Of a stretch of DNA of 64,000 nucleotides, positions 3,827-62,380 are shown piece after piece (the first letter of the stretch is position 1; each line of letters starts with the position of its first letter). The notes beneath the pieces are model-generated. The model was not told where the DNA came from, ran no database searches, and saw only the letters and a program-made list of their open reading frames with translations. The stretch lies in contig JBMFIF010000001.1 of assembly GCA_049976445.1 (NCBI GenBank), positions 24,634 through 88,633 on the forward strand, in the 5' to 3' direction. The position numbers and the translations under genes are program-made. The stretch is from Thermoprotei archaeon (GTDB taxonomy: Archaea > Thermoproteota > Thermoprotei > Gearchaeales > WAQG01).

Positions 3827-3845
3827 TTCTTCTATATTATTAAGG

Positions 3846-3938
3846 GGGCCGTAGTCTAGTTTGGTCTAGGAAGTTTAAAAAACCTAGAGTACCAGGCTCG
3901 GGCCCTGGAGATCGCCGGTTCAAATCCGGCCGGCCCCA
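3846..3938 (+). tRNA. tRNA-Pro (anticodon CGG) with an ~18-nt non-canonical intron in the D-stem 3' strand
   Basis: Acceptor is GGGGCCG/CGGCCCC plus discriminator A, followed by U8. D-arm is GUCU-AGUUUGGUCUA-GGAU once the intron AGUUUAAAAAACCUAGAG is removed. Anticodon arm is CCAGG-CUCGGGC-CCUGG (CGG). Variable loop is AGAUC and the T-arm is GCCGG-UUCAAAU-CCGGC. The intron forms a CUAGG...CCUAG hairpin across the junction. No CCA is encoded. Confidence 0.75.
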
Positions 3939-4031
3939 CTATATTAATGGTCGTCAGCAGCTCAATTAATCTAATTAAGAACAGGTTTCTCTAAGTAGTA
4001 GGACTTATATATTTTTTAAACGATAAATAAC

Positions 4032-5867
4032 TTGACCATTATGAAAAAGGCATATTATAGAACAATTATCAGTAGTATTATATTATTACTCATTATAATA
4101 ACATTAATAAGTAATGTTAATGTAGCCGCAGGAAAAACAGTGACTGCAGTGAGACCTACATTATTACAAAGATTTTATATGAATTCTACAAGTACTCAAT
4201 CAGACTTTAATGACCCATTTTTTGCTTTTGGAAGGGACCCGAGACCAAATCTTAGTACTAGTGGATATTGGAGTTGGCAAGATTATCCGTATAGTGTACC
4301 ATATGTAACTCCGCAAACTATTAAAATATTCACAAACGTTGCATCAAATGATATAACAAAGACGGGATATCCTCCATTAATAACAAGTAAAATTGTTAAC
4401 TTACCTTCAGGTAGTTATTCTAAAATATTGTTAAGGGTTGATGTACAATTAAAGAGTGTAATGCCTAGTAGATTAGCAGTAAATTATGATAGAGCACTCT
4501 GGATATTTGTAGATGGGGTACCACTTCTCATAGGGACAACAGCACAACGATATAGTTATACTGTAATATCGGATGTAACATTCTTATATCATCTTTTAAC
4601 TGGTACTCATAACTTTACGTTTGTACTTATAAATTATGTGATACCAAGTCTTGGACTTACTGGATATTTTATAGCAAATGTTACATTACTTTATTACCCT
4701 GGTGAAAAACCATCAAACATTGCGACAGACGTAGTACCATTATGGTCAAGTGGAATAAATAATTGGAGGTCTGGAGTTGCTTGGGCTGTACTTACATCAT
4801 CGAAGAATATAGCATTACAAAACGTGACAATACCAGGGAACATAACAAAAGCATATCTATTGCTTTATACAGAAGGCGCTTCGTATGATGAGTTTTGGTG
4901 GTCTAACATACCTACAAATCGTGAAGTCTTGGTTTATAGTGATAGTAAGTTAATAGCAGTATCACAACCGTTTCCAATAATTTACACAGGTGGTATAAAT
5001 CCGTTCATGTGGAGACCAGTACCAGGAATAAACACTTATGCATTCCAACCATTATTAATAGATATAACACCATATATACCATTCATCATCGGAACTCATA
5101 CCATAAAAGTCACTATAACTAATAACCAAAATTATTGGCTAGTCGGAGGAGCATTGCTACTTACCAAAACAAATACAACAGTAAGCTATAGGTTCTTAGG
5201 CGACAGCCCACAACTAATAGCAAATAAAACAACAAGCACAACACCAACTACAACTATATTCAATAATACAATGACATATACGAACACTGCATCACTAAAT
5301 ATTACAATAGGCTCACAAACAGTCACTTACAAAACAGAGTATAAGCTCAATTTGAACGCTATTCAATCATATAATGATATATGGTGGAATTCAACAGTAA
5401 CTCAAACATGGTATTATAAAAGTAACTGGTTAAATAAAACAGAATCCTCACGATCGTATTCATCATTAAACGTGAACTACGGTGAGATAATACAAGTATA
5501 CGGCGATATAAGTAAAGCATCGACATCGAATCCTGTACCAGCAACCTTTAGCCTTATAGCTGATCTTAACCATAAATATGTAACAGAAACAGAGCACACA
5601 AATGCAACATCACAAGTTGCTACAGTTCATGCAGAACACGTCACATCAAATTCAATATTAGCAGGAACATTAGTATTCATAAGCCCAACAGGAGCAATAA
5701 TAACAGGTATCACAACACTTAGTAGTGTAACATCAAAATCGTTAAAAACTGAAGAAACACAAAACAGTATAAAATTTGTATCATTCATGAGAGATACAGT
5801 TGGAGGAAACTATTATCCACCACTTACGTATGAAATATTCGTAGATGTGATCTCAGTAAAGTGGTAA
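4032..5867 (+). CDS. Membrane-anchored, Thr/Ser-rich extracellular glycoprotein (hypothetical surface protein)
   Basis: There is an N-terminal TM/signal anchor (IISSIILLLIIITLISNV). The protein has very many N-x-S/T sequons and Thr-rich linkers (NKTTSTTPTTTIFNNTMTYTNT), typical of Sulfolobales surface glycoproteins. Confidence 0.5.
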   Translation: MTIMKKAYYRTIISSIILLLIIITLISNVNVAAGKTVTAVRPTLLQRFYMNSTSTQSDFNDPFFAFGRDPRPNLSTSGYWSWQDYPYSVPYVTPQTIKIFTNVASNDITKTGYPPLITSKIVNLPSGSYSKILLRVDVQLKSVMPSRLAVNYDRALWIFVDGVPLLIGTTAQRYSYTVISDVTFLYHLLTGTHNFTFVLINYVIPSLGLTGYFIANVTLLYYPGEKPSNIATDVVPLWSSGINNWRSGVAWAVLTSSKNIALQNVTIPGNITKAYLLLYTEGASYDEFWWSNIPTNREVLVYSDSKLIAVSQPFPIIYTGGINPFMWRPVPGINTYAFQPLLIDITPYIPFIIGTHTIKVTITNNQNYWLVGGALLLTKTNTTVSYRFLGDSPQLIANKTTSTTPTTTIFNNTMTYTNTASLNITIGSQTVTYKTEYKLNLNAIQSYNDIWWNSTVTQTWYYKSNWLNKTESSRSYSSLNVNYGEIIQVYGDISKASTSNPVPATFSLIADLNHKYVTETEHTNATSQVATVHAEHVTSNSILAGTLVFISPTGAIITGITTLSSVTSKSLKTEETQNSIKFVSFMRDTVGGNYYPPLTYEIFVDVISVKW

Positions 5868-5944
5868 AAAATTAACATAAACTTTTTTTATTACTTTTAT
5901 GATATAATGAAAAATCATAAAAATTACTCAAGGAACCGTTTCGT

Positions 5945-6255
5945 CCCCCGAATTTATTCATAGAGATGAAGGACTCTAAAAACTATTATGAGAGGATCCC
6001 TCCACCTCCAGGTCTGCGCCCGGTAAGATTTTCCCTCGCTAATGCCCACAGAGCTTAAGCCTAATACTGGGCGTGGCATTGAGTAGTTCCGGCCGCAGGA
6101 GTCCATACTAAGGAGACATACATACGTGCTTCTAAGCTCTGTGGGCATAACCTAGTGAGCTGTTTTTGGCTCCTGGTTGTAGCTAGTCGGCCTTTGCATC
6201 GATACCATTATCCTAAGCTTTCGACTGAAGTCAGGAGCGTCTGACTTGTTTAGGA
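5945..6255. ncRNA. GC-rich (~50% GC) structured non-coding island of unknown identity; candidate stable RNA (RNase P RNA or another ~300-nt RNA); strand unresolved
   Basis: GC content rises sharply against the AT-rich background. A long imperfect helix pairs 6043-6059 (GCCCACAGAGCUUAAG) with 6129-6148 (CUUcUAAGCUCUGUGGGC) and encloses about 70 nt. A perfect 7-bp hairpin AAGUCAG-GAGCGU-CUGACUU lies at about 6228-6248. TATA-like boxes are present on both flanks. The only overlapping ORF (5954-6148) is weak. Confidence 0.35.
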
Positions 6256-6267
6256 ATTTTATAATAG

Positions 6268-6383
6268 TGGGGCCGCGGGGAGTTTCACCCTTTTCAGGGT
6301 TTTGAACCCCGGATCACCAGCGTTCCGGGAATAGGGGTATTCACCCCAGGCTGGCATCCTAATCCAGGCTGAACGACGGCCCC
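6268..6383 (-). tRNA. tRNA-Pro (anticodon GGG) with two introns: a canonical 37/38 intron (21 nt) and a T-loop 59/60 intron (19 nt)
   Basis: The minus-strand RNA reads as follows. Acceptor GGGGCCG, then U8 C9. D-arm GUUC-AGCCUGGAUUA-GGAU, then G26. Anticodon stem CCAGC / loop CUGGGG[UGAAUACCCCUAUUCCCGGAA]C / stem GCUGG. Variable loop UGAUC. T-stem CGGGG, T-loop UUCAAA[ACCCUGAAAAGGGUGAAAC]U, T-stem CCCCG. Acceptor 3' strand CGGCCCC plus discriminator A. After intron removal every arm is canonical. The D-arm and anticodon loop are closely related to the tRNA-Pro(CGG) at 3846. Confidence 0.7.
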
Positions 6384-6483
6384 GACTAAATTATTTATCT
6401 CGTAATAGTATTTAACTTTTATTGAGATTTACCTAAGATAGGTCAAGTTTTTAGCAATTCATAATATAAAAAATTAAAGATTT

Positions 6484-9694: not shown

Positions 9695-9747
9695 ATATTA
9701 TCTCCTCCACATAAATACTTGTCTATACATGTTTAAAAACTATTCGT

Positions 9748-9808
9748 TTACTGGTTCGAGACTGTCCACTTATTATGTGATAGTGATGTTGTGGTTGATA
9801 GCTTATCT
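9748..9808. mobile_element. 61-bp MITE-like element, copy 1: 11-bp terminal inverted repeats GAGACTGTCCA/TGGACAGTCTC, flanked by 8-bp direct repeats ACTGGTTC
   Basis: The element has perfect 11-bp TIRs and a conserved core (cttattatgt...gatgttgtggttgat). It is flanked by an exact 8-bp duplication at 9740-9747 and 9809-9816. A second, ~88% identical copy with its own 8-bp duplication lies at 28671-28731. Confidence 0.6.
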
Positions 9809-10387
9809 GGACAGTCTCACTGGTTCTAATTCGTAAGTTAAATATCCCTCAGGTTCACGTTTTGTTACTACAACTCTAACTTTCATTCCTACTCTTAATT
9901 TTTTAGGGTCGGTCTCTCGTACCCATGCTGTAATGTTAATTCCTTCTTTTAGCCTAGCTATACCTACTGTATAATCATCGTAGTGTGAAAAGCTGTTTGG
10001 TTTTACGTTTATTATTGTGTAAGTGAGTAGTTCTCCTTCATTACTTAATTCAACCCATTCTACGTCTGATTTTCTGCATTTGGGACAATCAATCTGTGGC
10101 GGAAAATAGAGTGCCCCGCATTGTTTACATTTTGTTGCATAAAGTTTTCCATCCATTAATCCATCGAAGAATTTTCTGATTTTATCAACGCTTATTACAT
10201 ATTTTAATGTTAATTCTCGTTGGTCAATCCATTGTGCAGCTCCGCTTTTCATGTCTGGCACAACTGGTAATCCCGTTGATTTCTTTATACTTTCAACAAA
10301 TTCGTTAAACTGTTTTGTTGCTTCTTCGGTCTGTTCCTTCTGCGTTTTCTTTTTTTCAACTTTCTGCTGAGTGCTCATGATATTCAC
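9803..10387 (-). CDS. DUF35 Zn-ribbon/OB-fold protein (thiolase partner) with extended N-terminus; last codons supplied by the MITE-like element
   Basis: The Zn-ribbon CKQCGALYFPPQIDCPKCR is followed by an OB-fold. The gene overlaps the downstream thiolase by 4 nt. The terminal codons (V)RLSR* are encoded by the right arm of the 61-bp element. Confidence 0.75.
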   Translation of the reverse strand: MNIMSTQQKVEKKKTQKEQTEEATKQFNEFVESIKKSTGLPVVPDMKSGAAQWIDQRELTLKYVISVDKIRKFFDGLMDGKLYATKCKQCGALYFPPQIDCPKCRKSDVEWVELSNEGELLTYTIINVKPNSFSHYDDYTVGIARLKEGINITAWVRETDPKKLRVGMKVRVVVTKREPEGYLTYELEPVRLSR

Positions 10388-21214: not shown

Positions 21215-21553
21215 TTTTTATAGCACCAAAATTTTTATCATATTCACTGTTTATAAAGTTTGCTATATTTTCTTATAGAATTATTCAAACATAAAATCTA
21301 TATACTAAAAGATTTCCTCTATGCCTTAAAGAGTTAGACTTTCATCTTGTTGTAATTTTTATAGTTTAGTTATCTATTAAAAATTCAAGAATTAAATAAA
21401 AAGCAGATTATATAGTTGAATGATCTTTATTTCTGTGACATATAAATTTAAAAAATATATTTATAAATAGCAGAATTTTTAAATTTGTTTTGATGATTTT
21501 TGTAACTAATTATTTTGTAAGTAATTTTATCTTTATTTTTTCTGTTATGAGGC

Positions 21554-27696: not shown

Positions 27697-28617
27697 CTAT
27701 ACTTTCATAATGTTTGTTATTAATTTTTCTGATATAACATCTTGATTTCCTGATATTATCAATGAAGCAATGTAATTTCCAAATTGAAGACATAAACCTA
27801 ATGGTAAATTCTTCAAATATGCAGCATAGAAACCTGCTATAAATGCGTCACCTGCACCCTTTACTGATAATACCTTTACTTTGAATGCTTTTTCTTTAAT
27901 TACATTATCCTCAAAAATAGCAAGAGAACCTTTAGAACCAAGCTTTATGACTTTTATAGGAGGCTTCATGCTAGCTAATTTACTAACTGCTTCTTTTATA
28001 CTCTGCGAATTAGTTAATGTTATGTATTCTTCAACATTCCCAAATAAGAACGTTAATTTTTCTAATACACTATTAAGATATTCCTTTTGTATATTTTTTA
28101 TTCTTGGAAACAGATCTAAACCAATTTTAATATTCTTTTTAGACAATACATTAAGTAATGTCATAAATTCATCATAATCAATAAGTTCTAATGCATACCC
28201 TGATACATGAAATATTTTTGGGTTGGTATCCTGTATCTTTTCAATATATTTATTAATTTTTGATCCAATATGATAAATCGCTCTTCGTGCACCACTCTTA
28301 TTAATAATACTTATCACAGTATATACTTCATTGTCATGATGAACAGTTAATAATAAGTTTTCTTTTCCTATCTCGCATTCTACGAAATTTTTTAACAAAT
28401 TACCTACCGGATTATCGCTTAGTGATGAGATAAACATAACAGATAAACCAAGCTTTTTAGCGATCCGTGCAACATTACTTCCTGAACCCCCAAGTGATAT
28501 ATCAACCTTTTTAGCTTCTCTCTGATTACCTAAAATTTCAATGTTTTCAGAATAATACACATCAATATCTAAGCATAAATCTCCTATAACTACTAAATCA
28601 TAATTGAGATCTGCCAT
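27697..28617 (-). CDS. PfkB-family carbohydrate/nucleoside kinase (ribokinase-like)
   Basis: The N-terminal GDLCLDIDVY and C-terminal GAGDAFIAGF motifs are both present. Confidence 0.75.
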   Translation of the reverse strand: MADLNYDLVVIGDLCLDIDVYYSENIEILGNQREAKKVDISLGGSGSNVARIAKKLGLSVMFISSLSDNPVGNLLKNFVECEIGKENLLLTVHHDNEVYTVISIINKSGARRAIYHIGSKINKYIEKIQDTNPKIFHVSGYALELIDYDEFMTLLNVLSKKNIKIGLDLFPRIKNIQKEYLNSVLEKLTFLFGNVEEYITLTNSQSIKEAVSKLASMKPPIKVIKLGSKGSLAIFEDNVIKEKAFKVKVLSVKGAGDAFIAGFYAAYLKNLPLGLCLQFGNYIASLIISGNQDVISEKLITNIMKV

Positions 28618-28670
28618 ATCCTATAGTTAAAGAAAGTTAGTATTTTTAAATATTAATGGATTACTACACA

Positions 28671-28731
28671 GAGACTGTCCACTTATTATGTAGAAATGAT
28701 GTTGTGGTTGATGGCCTATCTGGACAGCCTC
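28671..28731. mobile_element. 61-bp MITE-like element, copy 2 (TIR GAGACTGTCCA / TGGACAGCCTC), flanked by 8-bp direct repeats ACTACACA
   Basis: It is ~88% identical to the copy at 9748-9808. An exact 8-bp duplication is present at 28663-28670 and 28732-28739. The element is inserted about 54 nt upstream of the pfkB-family kinase start, distal to its TATA-like box. Confidence 0.6.
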
Positions 28732-29144
28732 ACTACACACTGAAGTTAAAGTTTTAAGAAAAGTCTGATTATTTTTACTTACTGTAATTATTTTTAATGT
28801 TTTATACCTTATTTGGAAAGTGCTTGTTGCATAATTCGTGCGTGGTTTTGTGGAGCGTTTCGCAGTCTCCTCCAATCTCATAATACTTACCGGTAGGATT
28901 TGATGTATGCTAGTTAGGAGTGTTCATTAAAACTGTGAGAAAACATCATCAAATTCTTAACTCATAAGAATACTCAGCATAGAAAGCACACCAAAAACGC
29001 ATCAGAATTATGCAACAAAGCATTGGAAAGAATACTCTTTTTATTATATGATAAGATTTGAAGTATTATTCCTAATGTTTTATTTGTTTTGTTGTCTTTT
29101 ATTTTTGTTCTGAACATAACGAAAATGTTTTATTTTAGGATTAT

Positions 29145-30200
29145 TTGGTGATATTTATGGTTAGAGTTTCCATAGTTGGCGGTTCGGGATACAATGGAGG
29201 AGAATTATTAAGGATCTTAGCAAATCATTCGAAAGTCGAAGTTACTTATGTGACTTCTAAAGAATATGTTGGGAAACCTATAACTTTCGTACATCCGAAT
29301 TTGAGAGGATTTTATTCTTTAAGGTTTTCAGAGTATAATATAGATAAGCTAACTAATCTATCAGATGTAGTGTTTCTATCTGTACCACATGGCGTCTCAA
29401 TGACTTTAGTTCCGAGTCTTTTAAATGTTGGTTTGCGGGTGATTGATCTTAGTGCTGATTATAGACTTAAAGATCCTGAACTCTATAAGATCTGGTACGG
29501 GATTGAGCATCCACAACCTGATCTCTTAAGTAAGGCCGTTTATGGGCTACCGGAGCTACATTTTGATGAGTTGCAGAATGCTAGTCTGATAGCATCTCCA
29601 GGTTGTAATGCGACCGCTTCTATATTAGCTTTGGCACCTCTTGCAGCTAATGGTTTGGTTTACGGTAATGTCATTGTTGATATAAAGGCTGGTAGTAGTG
29701 AAGGTGGTTCTAAACCTACTGCAGGTAGTCATCATCCAGAGCGTGAGCATGCTATCAGGCCTTACGAAGCAGAGGGACATAGACATGTTGCTGAAATCGA
29801 GCAAGAATTAAATCGAATTTCTAAGAAAATTGGAAAAGTGAGTCTTATTCCTCATGCTGTAAGTAGTGTAAGAGGTGTACTGGCTTCTGCGCATGTTTGG
29901 GTTGAGTCTGTGTTAAGTGATTTAGATTTATTAAAAATTGTTTCAGGATTTTATAAGGACAGGAAGTTTATTCGTATTGTGAGAGGGTTTCCTCAGTATC
30001 CAGATCCAAAGTATGTGATTGGAAGTAACTTTGCTGATATTGGTTTTGCTTTTGAGAAGCGTGTTAATAGGGTTACTATTTTTGCGGCGTTGGATAATCT
30101 AATTAAGGGTGGTGCTGGGCAGGCAGTTCAGGCGTTTAACATATCTATGGGATTTGATGAAGGAGAGGGTCTCATGACACCTCCTTTAAGGCCGGTGTGA
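29145..30200 (+). CDS. lysY: N-acetyl-gamma-glutamyl-phosphate / [LysW]-aminoadipyl-phosphate reductase
   Basis: The N-terminal VSIVGGSGYNGGELLRIL and the catalytic Cys context (SPGCNAT) are present. Confidence 0.85.
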   Translation: MVIFMVRVSIVGGSGYNGGELLRILANHSKVEVTYVTSKEYVGKPITFVHPNLRGFYSLRFSEYNIDKLTNLSDVVFLSVPHGVSMTLVPSLLNVGLRVIDLSADYRLKDPELYKIWYGIEHPQPDLLSKAVYGLPELHFDELQNASLIASPGCNATASILALAPLAANGLVYGNVIVDIKAGSSEGGSKPTAGSHHPEREHAIRPYEAEGHRHVAEIEQELNRISKKIGKVSLIPHAVSSVRGVLASAHVWVESVLSDLDLLKIVSGFYKDRKFIRIVRGFPQYPDPKYVIGSNFADIGFAFEKRVNRVTIFAALDNLIKGGAGQAVQAFNISMGFDEGEGLMTPPLRPV

Positions 30201-62087: not shown

Positions 62088-62380
62088 TAAATCTGGGGTT
62101 CGGGTTTCATTGGGCTTGATATCAAGCTATATCAAGCCCTCTCCCTTGGCATCATAGCCCTCAGGACCCCTTTTCATCGGGATCCATATCACTGGGCTCC
62201 GCCCGCCCGGGGTGACCCCAACCCACAACTCCACCCTCATCGATTCCTCCGGTTCATAGCTGTGGGGAAACCCCCGCATCCTGGCTTTCGAATGTGCGCC
62301 CCACTTGGGTCTTCACCACATACCCGCATTTGGGACGCTCTCTTGCATCACCGTGCTTCAATAAAGGAACTAAATCAACC
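62088..62380 (+). ncRNA. GC-rich (~55% GC) structured RNA candidate, ~290 nt, unknown identity (possible RNase P RNA-like or novel stable RNA)
   Basis: There is no ORF in this region. An abrupt GC island sits in AT-rich context. A perfect 11-bp hairpin GGGCUUGAUAU-CAAGCU-AUAUCAAGCCC is present, plus a GGGGAAACCCC hairpin and a GGGGUGACCCC hairpin. Short RNase-P-like strings (GGGCUCC ... GGGUGA ... AACUCCACCC) occur, but the P4 consensus GGAAAGUCCGGGC is absent. An upstream TATA box sits at the correct spacing. Confidence 0.35.

Follow-up and report, generated by a model that had tools for sequence, protein, structure and literature searches.

The question raised by this locus is whether the end of a conserved gene has been rewritten by a transposable element and, if so, how recently that element moved and what moved it. 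In the 64,000-nucleotide stretch of a Thermoprotei archaeon contig analysed here (the window), a DUF35 gene terminates inside a 61-bp sequence that is bounded by TIRs and flanked by 8-bp direct repeats. We conclude that this sequence is very probably a non-autonomous DNA transposon (MITE) of an undescribed family that has been mobile recently, with a longer element of the same species as the likely source of its transposase.

The first copy (A) can be read directly in the window as 61 bp on the plus strand at 9758–9818. An earlier sequence-only reading had interpreted this site as the insertion of a MITE-like element, complete with TIRs and a TSD of 8 bp, and the element itself is borne out, although its placement at 9740–9816 was approximately 10 bp off. 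The TIRs of copy A are perfect (11/11), TGGACAGTCTC being the exact complement of GAGACTGTCCA. A second copy (B), for which the same reading gave exact coordinates (28671–28731), shares these TIRs with a single mismatch in the right one, TGGACAGCCTC (10/11), and lies between a PfkB kinase gene (27697–28617, minus strand) and argC/lysY (29145–30200, plus strand). The two copies agree at 54 of 61 positions and have a conserved, asymmetric interior in common. Both have exact 8-bp TSDs (8/8) of different sequence, that of copy B being ACTACACA as had been claimed. In 100 first-order Markov simulations of the window, which has a G+C content of 33.7%, a perfect 11-bp inverted repeat with a 20–80 bp spacer and an exact 8-bp flanking direct repeat never arose (0/100), against the one instance observed (copy A). 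The element is too short for a gene at 61 bp (60 bp in one further copy, L029) and has no coding capacity. An 84-aa ORF at 28627–28881 (minus strand) does span copy B and was called as a gene without a Pfam match in two contigs of the same species (L041 and L042); most likely the insertion gave rise to a false gene call here.

Coordinates of the two 61-bp copies and associated features in the window
Feature	Position	Strand	Remarks
MITE copy A	9758..9818	+	61 bp, non-coding; in window, L052, L053; not in L051
Copy A left TIR	9758..9768	+	GAGACTGTCCA
Copy A right TIR	9808..9818	-	TGGACAGTCTC on + strand; encodes R-L-S of DUF35 tail
Copy A TSD, left	9750..9757	.	ACTGGTTC; single in empty allele L051
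Copy A TSD, right	9819..9826	.	ACTGGTTC
MITE copy B	28671..28731	+	61 bp, intergenic; in L041–L044, not in related-species L045
Copy B TSD, left	28663..28670	.	ACTACACA
Copy B TSD, right	28732..28739	.	ACTACACA
Empty target of longer element	21268..21275	-	TAAGAAAA on - strand; filled in GCA_049973215.1, JGI 3300039096
DUF35 / Zn-ribbon OB-fold gene (PF12172 + PF01796)	9803..10387	-	last four codons + stop (9803–9805) within element
TATA-box-like TTTTTAAA	9732..9739	-	before acyl-CoA dehydrogenase gene (start 9694); 19–26 nt from element end

Five conspecific assemblies (GCA_049973215.1, GCA_049970455.1, GCA_023255895.1, JGI 3300039096, and JGI 3300019821) are 99.4–99.99% identical to the window, and they contain both filled and empty alleles of site A. 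The empty allele is on contig JBMFMX010000006.1 of GCA_049970455.1 (L051), which is 99.86% identical to the window in nucleotide sequence; it has one ACTGGTTC and no element, reads ...CTATTCGTTT ACTGGTTC TAATTCG..., and carries a DUF35 gene called at 189 aa and ending ...EPVNE*. The gene strand is thus gaaccagtaaacgaatag, which is to the base the empty site, with the same protein ending, that the sequence-only reading had predicted. Filled sites with a copy A identical to that of the window are present in JGI 3300039096 (L052) and GCA_049973215.1 (L053).

An empty allele could alternatively reflect secondary loss, by deletion between the 8-bp repeats or by precise excision, in which case the insertion at site A would not be recent. 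Direct repeats of 8 bp can serve as the substrate of precise deletion, and L051 is the only empty conspecific allele seen; however, no difference separates the copies A of the window, L052, and L053, which is what a young insertion would predict, and the next species out (GCA_038881895.1, approximately 85% nucleotide identity to the window) lacks the element at both sites A and B, so that absence is the ancestral state. Secondary loss is therefore improbable. At site B in this related species (L045) homology restarts at the duplicated octamer. Site A in the related species lacks the element but contains an unrelated 28 bp, CTAACATCCTAAAGAATGGGGCTTGATT (L016:10559–10586), so it does not provide a clean empty site. 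These 28 bp lie between GAACCA and GTAAACGAATAG, within 2 bp of the MITE insertion point in the window's species, and supply a stop of their own (...EPLTS*); no copy was found elsewhere among the sequences compared, and the idea that they are the footprint of an earlier insertion was dropped, the similarity that would have supported it not being found. In more distant orthologous loci the intergenic region at site A is not alignable. Judged by the alleles compared, copy A inserted recently and is polymorphic in the species. Filled and precisely empty alleles in a single species indicate that the family moves on a timescale as short as that on which strains diverge.

Additional copies were sought by scanning metagenome contigs for a TIR-gap-TIR pattern, which yielded two with the same interior and conserved TIRs, L025:887–947 and L029:750–809 (60–61 bp), bringing the distinct loci with the element to four. 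Both are on low-GC contigs of approximately 2x coverage, from samples ERZ1669249 (L025) and ERZ1669248 (L029), and the former sample also yielded L056, a contig at 1.6x coverage from the species of the window. The flanking repeat in L025 is TATGGGG(A/G), matching at 7 of 8 positions, and the flanks in L029 are degenerate (AAATATGC/AAATGC). The suggestion that the TSDs begin with ACT consequently holds for copies A and B only, the flanks of the others being (C/T)CCCCATA (the other strand of L025) and AAATATGC/AAATGC. With these copies and the L051 empty allele, the element is not the isolated sequence, bare of further copies and empty sites, that would have spoken against an insertion. Two contigs (L043 and L044, whose assemblies are possibly from one sample) terminate inside copy B or 4 bp outside it, as is to be expected since repeats cause such breaks.

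Other searches were negative within their scope. The TIR-gap-TIR scan of 185,579 species genomes, a set that excludes the source genome, gave 15 matches, all of them unrelated bacterial hairpins; TIR scans of viral contigs revealed no copies; blastn of the element and of both longer-element ends against plasmids and phages gave none or only chance matches; and a full-text literature search with the TIR string returned unrelated primer sequences only. Some minor repeats were seen in passing. In L025, similar hairpins at 812–835 and 977–1000 (CCACCGTTTAAAAACGGTGG and CCACTGTTTGAAAACGGTG) bracket the MITE copy and may belong to another small repeat family, and in L029 a lone GAGACAGTCCA (843–853), one mismatch from the TIR and 34 bp from the MITE copy, is either a remnant copy or a chance match. 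Many unrelated bacterial contigs (L004, L012, L005, L019, L023, and others) contain palindromic elements of 48–76 bp with GAGACTGTCCA(A/C) at the start and its complement at the end, in some cases between short flanking repeats, and the terminal motif may therefore also serve bacterial small repeats.

The TIRs can fold into a hairpin with an 11-bp stem (-16 to -20 kcal/mol; fold z-scores -3.3 to -4.0). This stem could belong to a structured RNA or DNA hairpin that is conserved for a fixed role in the cell (an sRNA, a terminator or stabiliser, or a palindrome bound by a regulator, for instance), a reading that would also account for the asymmetric interior conserved among copies and for the placement of three copies at equal distances from a TATA-like box (see below). 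It would not account for a conspecific genome that is precisely without the element and retains one 8-bp repeat, nor for flanking direct repeats that differ at every locus; moreover, Rfam 15 gives no match to the 61-bp element, either at the gathering score or at E≤1. An sRNA of the C/D-box or H/ACA type was considered and rejected: the copies share no conserved C, D, or ACA boxes, and in L025 and L029 the stem is not followed by the ACT seen after it in both window copies. We regard a fixed hairpin role as very improbable. The hairpin-forming structure would also suit an IS200/IS605-type palindrome-associated element or a REP/RAYT repeat, moved as single-stranded DNA, and the window does contain a HEARO-like (IscB-associated) RNA at 6023–6245; but such elements are without TIRs or a TSD, and here both are present, with 8 bp duplicated at independent sites, which leaves this origin scarcely credible. 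What the 61-bp element does have are the structural and behavioural features by which a MITE is recognized, apart from the autonomous partner, for which there is a candidate (see below): it is short and non-coding, has TIRs and TSDs of fixed length and variable sequence, occurs in several dispersed copies, and has filled and empty alleles. A longer element, moreover, resembles it in its ends and in the length of its TSD.

As an insertion of this kind, copy A would have arisen by binding and cleavage at the 11-bp TIRs, the presumed recognition sites of a transposase supplied in trans, followed by a cut of the target with an 8-bp stagger, presumably of the DDE type, and repair of the gaps to leave the 8-bp duplication. 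The insertion fell two codons before the DUF35 stop, changing ...V-NE* to ...V-RLSR* and placing the stop 51 bp farther from the promoter of the next gene. The present ORF indeed ends ...YELEPVRLSR*, in which R-L-S-R and the stop are supplied by copy A and the final base of the Val codon is the first base of the element; together with the empty allele in L051 this agrees with the rewriting from ...EPVNE* that had been proposed from the window alone. The replacement of NE by RLSR is probably neutral, because the ends of DUF35 orthologs vary past the last invariant residue, Pro189 (EPLTS, EPLEK, EPVE, VPAE, ...). On its other side the hairpin of copy A faces TTTTTAAA, which by the archaeal promoter consensus is a predicted promoter element of the acyl-CoA dehydrogenase gene, and the hairpin thus falls between DUF35 and this predicted promoter.

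The window genes contain no transposase domain by Pfam annotation, and the best candidate for a donor comes from a different site. Contigs L041 and L042 follow the window to 21268 and then continue with GAGACTGTCCACATAAGACATC... for 124 nt to the contig end (L041:17352–17475), and L050, L052, and L053 start inside the same element, whose end, ...CTTATGTGGACAGTCTC, is followed by TAAGAAAA and then by window sequence (right end, L050:1–116). This longer element is known from its ends only (124 + 116 nt). It has a 17-bp TIR, GAGACTGTCCACATAAG, of which the first 12 nt are the MITE terminus, and an 8-bp duplication, TAAGAAAA, whereas at this site in the window and three other assemblies TAAGAAAA occurs only once and the element is missing. 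By comparison of these junctions, it is a second polymorphic insertion in the same species. The sequence-only reading had advised a search for an IS with matching TIRs, and the longer element corresponds to this in its termini and TSD length, although no transposase ORF is present in the recovered 124 + 116 nt. Four candidate peptides encoded by the ends matched nothing in a protein search, and a fifth candidate N-terminus, on the opposite strand, reads VNIFEYFKQLNIFKRNKVP.

The termini of the 61-bp element match the 17-bp TIR at 16/17 and 14/17 positions. Beyond the terminal 12–17 nt its inner 37 nt have no significant similarity to the longer-element ends, and the notion that it is a simple deletion product joining the left and right ends of the longer element was rejected, the by-eye alignment being no better than shuffles when the termini were excluded. 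Derivation of this general type is nevertheless seen in another organism, where L031 contains a 72-bp element composed of approximately 53 nt of the longer element's right end and the left TIR. It has no TSD, and by its composition it is an internal-deletion derivative of the longer element; the longer-element group therefore does generate MITEs.

It is quite possible, though not the reading to which we incline, that the 61-bp element is a MITE but that the longer element at 21268 is not its donor, being instead a larger non-autonomous relative, or that a different IS with similar ends mobilises it. The imperfect match of the termini, the dissimilar inner 37 nt, and the lack of any match to peptides from an element of which only the ends were recovered are consistent with this. 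Set against it are the terminal 12 nt and the 8-bp TSD length common to both elements, their polymorphism in the same species, and the formation of a MITE from the longer element in L031. From the shared terminus (17-bp TIR) and the 8-bp duplications, we infer that the longer element is the best candidate transposase donor for the 61-bp family and would mobilise it in trans. Given the ends alone, with no transposase ORF in them, it may itself be non-autonomous.

The flanks of six insertions were compared for a pattern of target choice. Tracts of A/T lie approximately 15 bp to each side of the 8-bp target (21–26 nt outward from both element ends) at all six sites, and positions 23–25 outward from the element end are A/T in all 12 flanks. 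Octamers at +19 to +26 with at least seven A/T are present in 10 of the 12 flanks, compared to 28% of background non-ORF positions (P ~1e-4, with offsets that were picked post hoc). At four of the six sites a TATA-box-like octamer is positioned at exactly +19 to +26 on one side, namely TTTTTAAA (copy A), TATTTAAA (copy B, at window positions 28645–28652), TTATTAAG (L029), and TTTATAAA (the longer element), and three of these four sit before a gene start at a suitable distance. In L025 the TATA-like motif is on the opposite end, and in L031 it is shifted by 2 nt.

One explanation is that the transposase picks targets by promoter architecture, with the 8-bp target approximately 10 bp upstream of BRE/TATA and between A/T tracts some 15 bp away, perhaps by reading DNA that is bent by TBP/TFB or intrinsically bendable. 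We consider this unlikely. A strictly orientation-specific form was dropped, given the motif at the opposite end in L025 and the A/T tracts on both sides, and a symmetric preference for an A/T-bracketed target fits better than strict promoter targeting, six sites being too few for more. If promoter targeting were true, the family would represent a promoter-directed integration system in archaea that is still active in natural hot-spring populations, and an element of 61 bp, with TIRs of 11 bp, would approach the minimal substrate for transposition. Should the spacing of A/T tract and TATA hold in more copies, it would offer a testable instance of target choice by an archaeal transposase.

The host belongs to the Thermoprotei and is uncultured. 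The best homolog of the DUF35 protein (94% identity) and an identical PfkB kinase are both in MAGs named "Thermoprotei archaeon", and among named relatives those of Pyrodictiaceae, Desulfurococcales, and Acidilobales are 60–70% identical and those of Sulfolobaceae 50–56%; Sulfolobus is not the source of the window. Contig look-ups with the chimeric DUF35, two window-edge ORFs, and the acyl-CoA dehydrogenase gave no recorded match.

Elements of this kind are familiar in Sulfolobus, where SM1 is approximately 80 bp and the partner ISs of SM1–SM4 and SMN1 are ISC1048, ISC1217, ISC1058, ISC1173, and ISC1733. The 61-bp family resembles these MITEs in being non-coding, TIR-bounded, multicopy, and crenarchaeal, with short direct repeats and a presumed IS transposase acting in trans, and it is set apart from them, as their sizes and hosts are described, by its smaller size of 61 bp and its uncultured Thermoprotei host, whose DUF35 is nearer to Desulfurococcales/Acidilobales-like proteins than to those of Sulfolobaceae. 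Archaeal MITEs have been known since the description of SM1–SM4 in 2001 (Redder, She & Garrett 2001, as cited in PMC10969869), and SM3A and SMN1 of Sulfolobus are 164 bp and 320 bp in length (PMC3718332). The MITEs of Staphylothermus marinus are approximately 260 nt long, are similar to sequence lying upstream of a transposase gene, and interrupt ORFs (PMC2678158). Like the present family these are ORF-disrupting MITEs in a low-GC crenarchaeon of the Desulfurococcales type, but they are four times longer and have an identified partner transposase, whereas the 61-bp family has a strain-level empty site instead.

Among bacterial small MITEs, Correia elements duplicate TA. Correia, RPE, ERIC, and RUP elements remodel gene ends (reviewed in PMC10969869). 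The 61-bp element is like them in inserting at a gene boundary, in providing new codons or stops, and in adding a hairpin to the transcript; it differs in host, sequence, and TSD. Duplications of 8 bp occur in the IS256, ISL3, IS1595, and IS6 families and in the ISH1 group of IS5 (ISfinder family tables). The 61-bp and longer elements have this common TSD length and TIRs of 11–17 bp starting with G, a comparison that draws on termini and duplications rather than on a transposase sequence.

The 61-bp family is thus new and unusually small, and found in an uncultivated lineage, but the kind of element is already known. It documents an active transposon family in a lineage of uncultivated thermophilic archaea, with filled and empty alleles of one site in one species, which are rarely available for organisms represented only by MAGs. 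With 11-bp TIRs in 61 bp it ranks with the smallest elements for which transposition is directly evidenced, and so it limits the DNA that a transposase needs in cis. There are also consequences for annotation: the altered called end of a conserved gene, the spurious 84-aa ORF at copy B, and contig breaks.

Several other features of the window and of the related species deserve mention. HEARO (RF02033) is an RNA associated with IscB/HNH endonuclease ORFs, and positions 6023–6245 (minus strand) give a full-length but sub-threshold match to it (45.9 bits, gathering score 83; E = 3e-8 in 601 nt). It retains many of the consensus blocks but has no HNH/IscB ORF beside it. The HEARO-like RNA sits in a GC-rich island (5981–6390) at the edge of a 2.3-kb segment (3939–6263) that carries a PNGaseA-like ORF (4032–5867) and is absent from the related species (L016). 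Directly before this segment ARAGORN predicts a 95-nt tRNA-like gene (3845–3939), reported as Phe with anticodon aaa and probably intron-containing or miscalled, and the arrangement looks like an insertion or deletion beside a tRNA gene. A 290-nt island at 62091–62380, with 64% G+C versus 33.7% for the window, matches nothing in Rfam, even at E≤1, and none of the loci compared contains a copy of it; it may be a structured RNA that has escaped annotation. In the related species, by the place orthologous to that of copy B, a GC-rich and strongly structured region of approximately 350 nt (L045:9585–9935) has fold z-scores of -4.4 and -4.0 on its two strands; Rfam has no family for it, and the window lacks it. 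The adjacent sequence L045:9501–9634 is repeated with 89% identity at L045:20789–20891 (= L016:3696–3828), and the related species therefore has a repeat family of its own.
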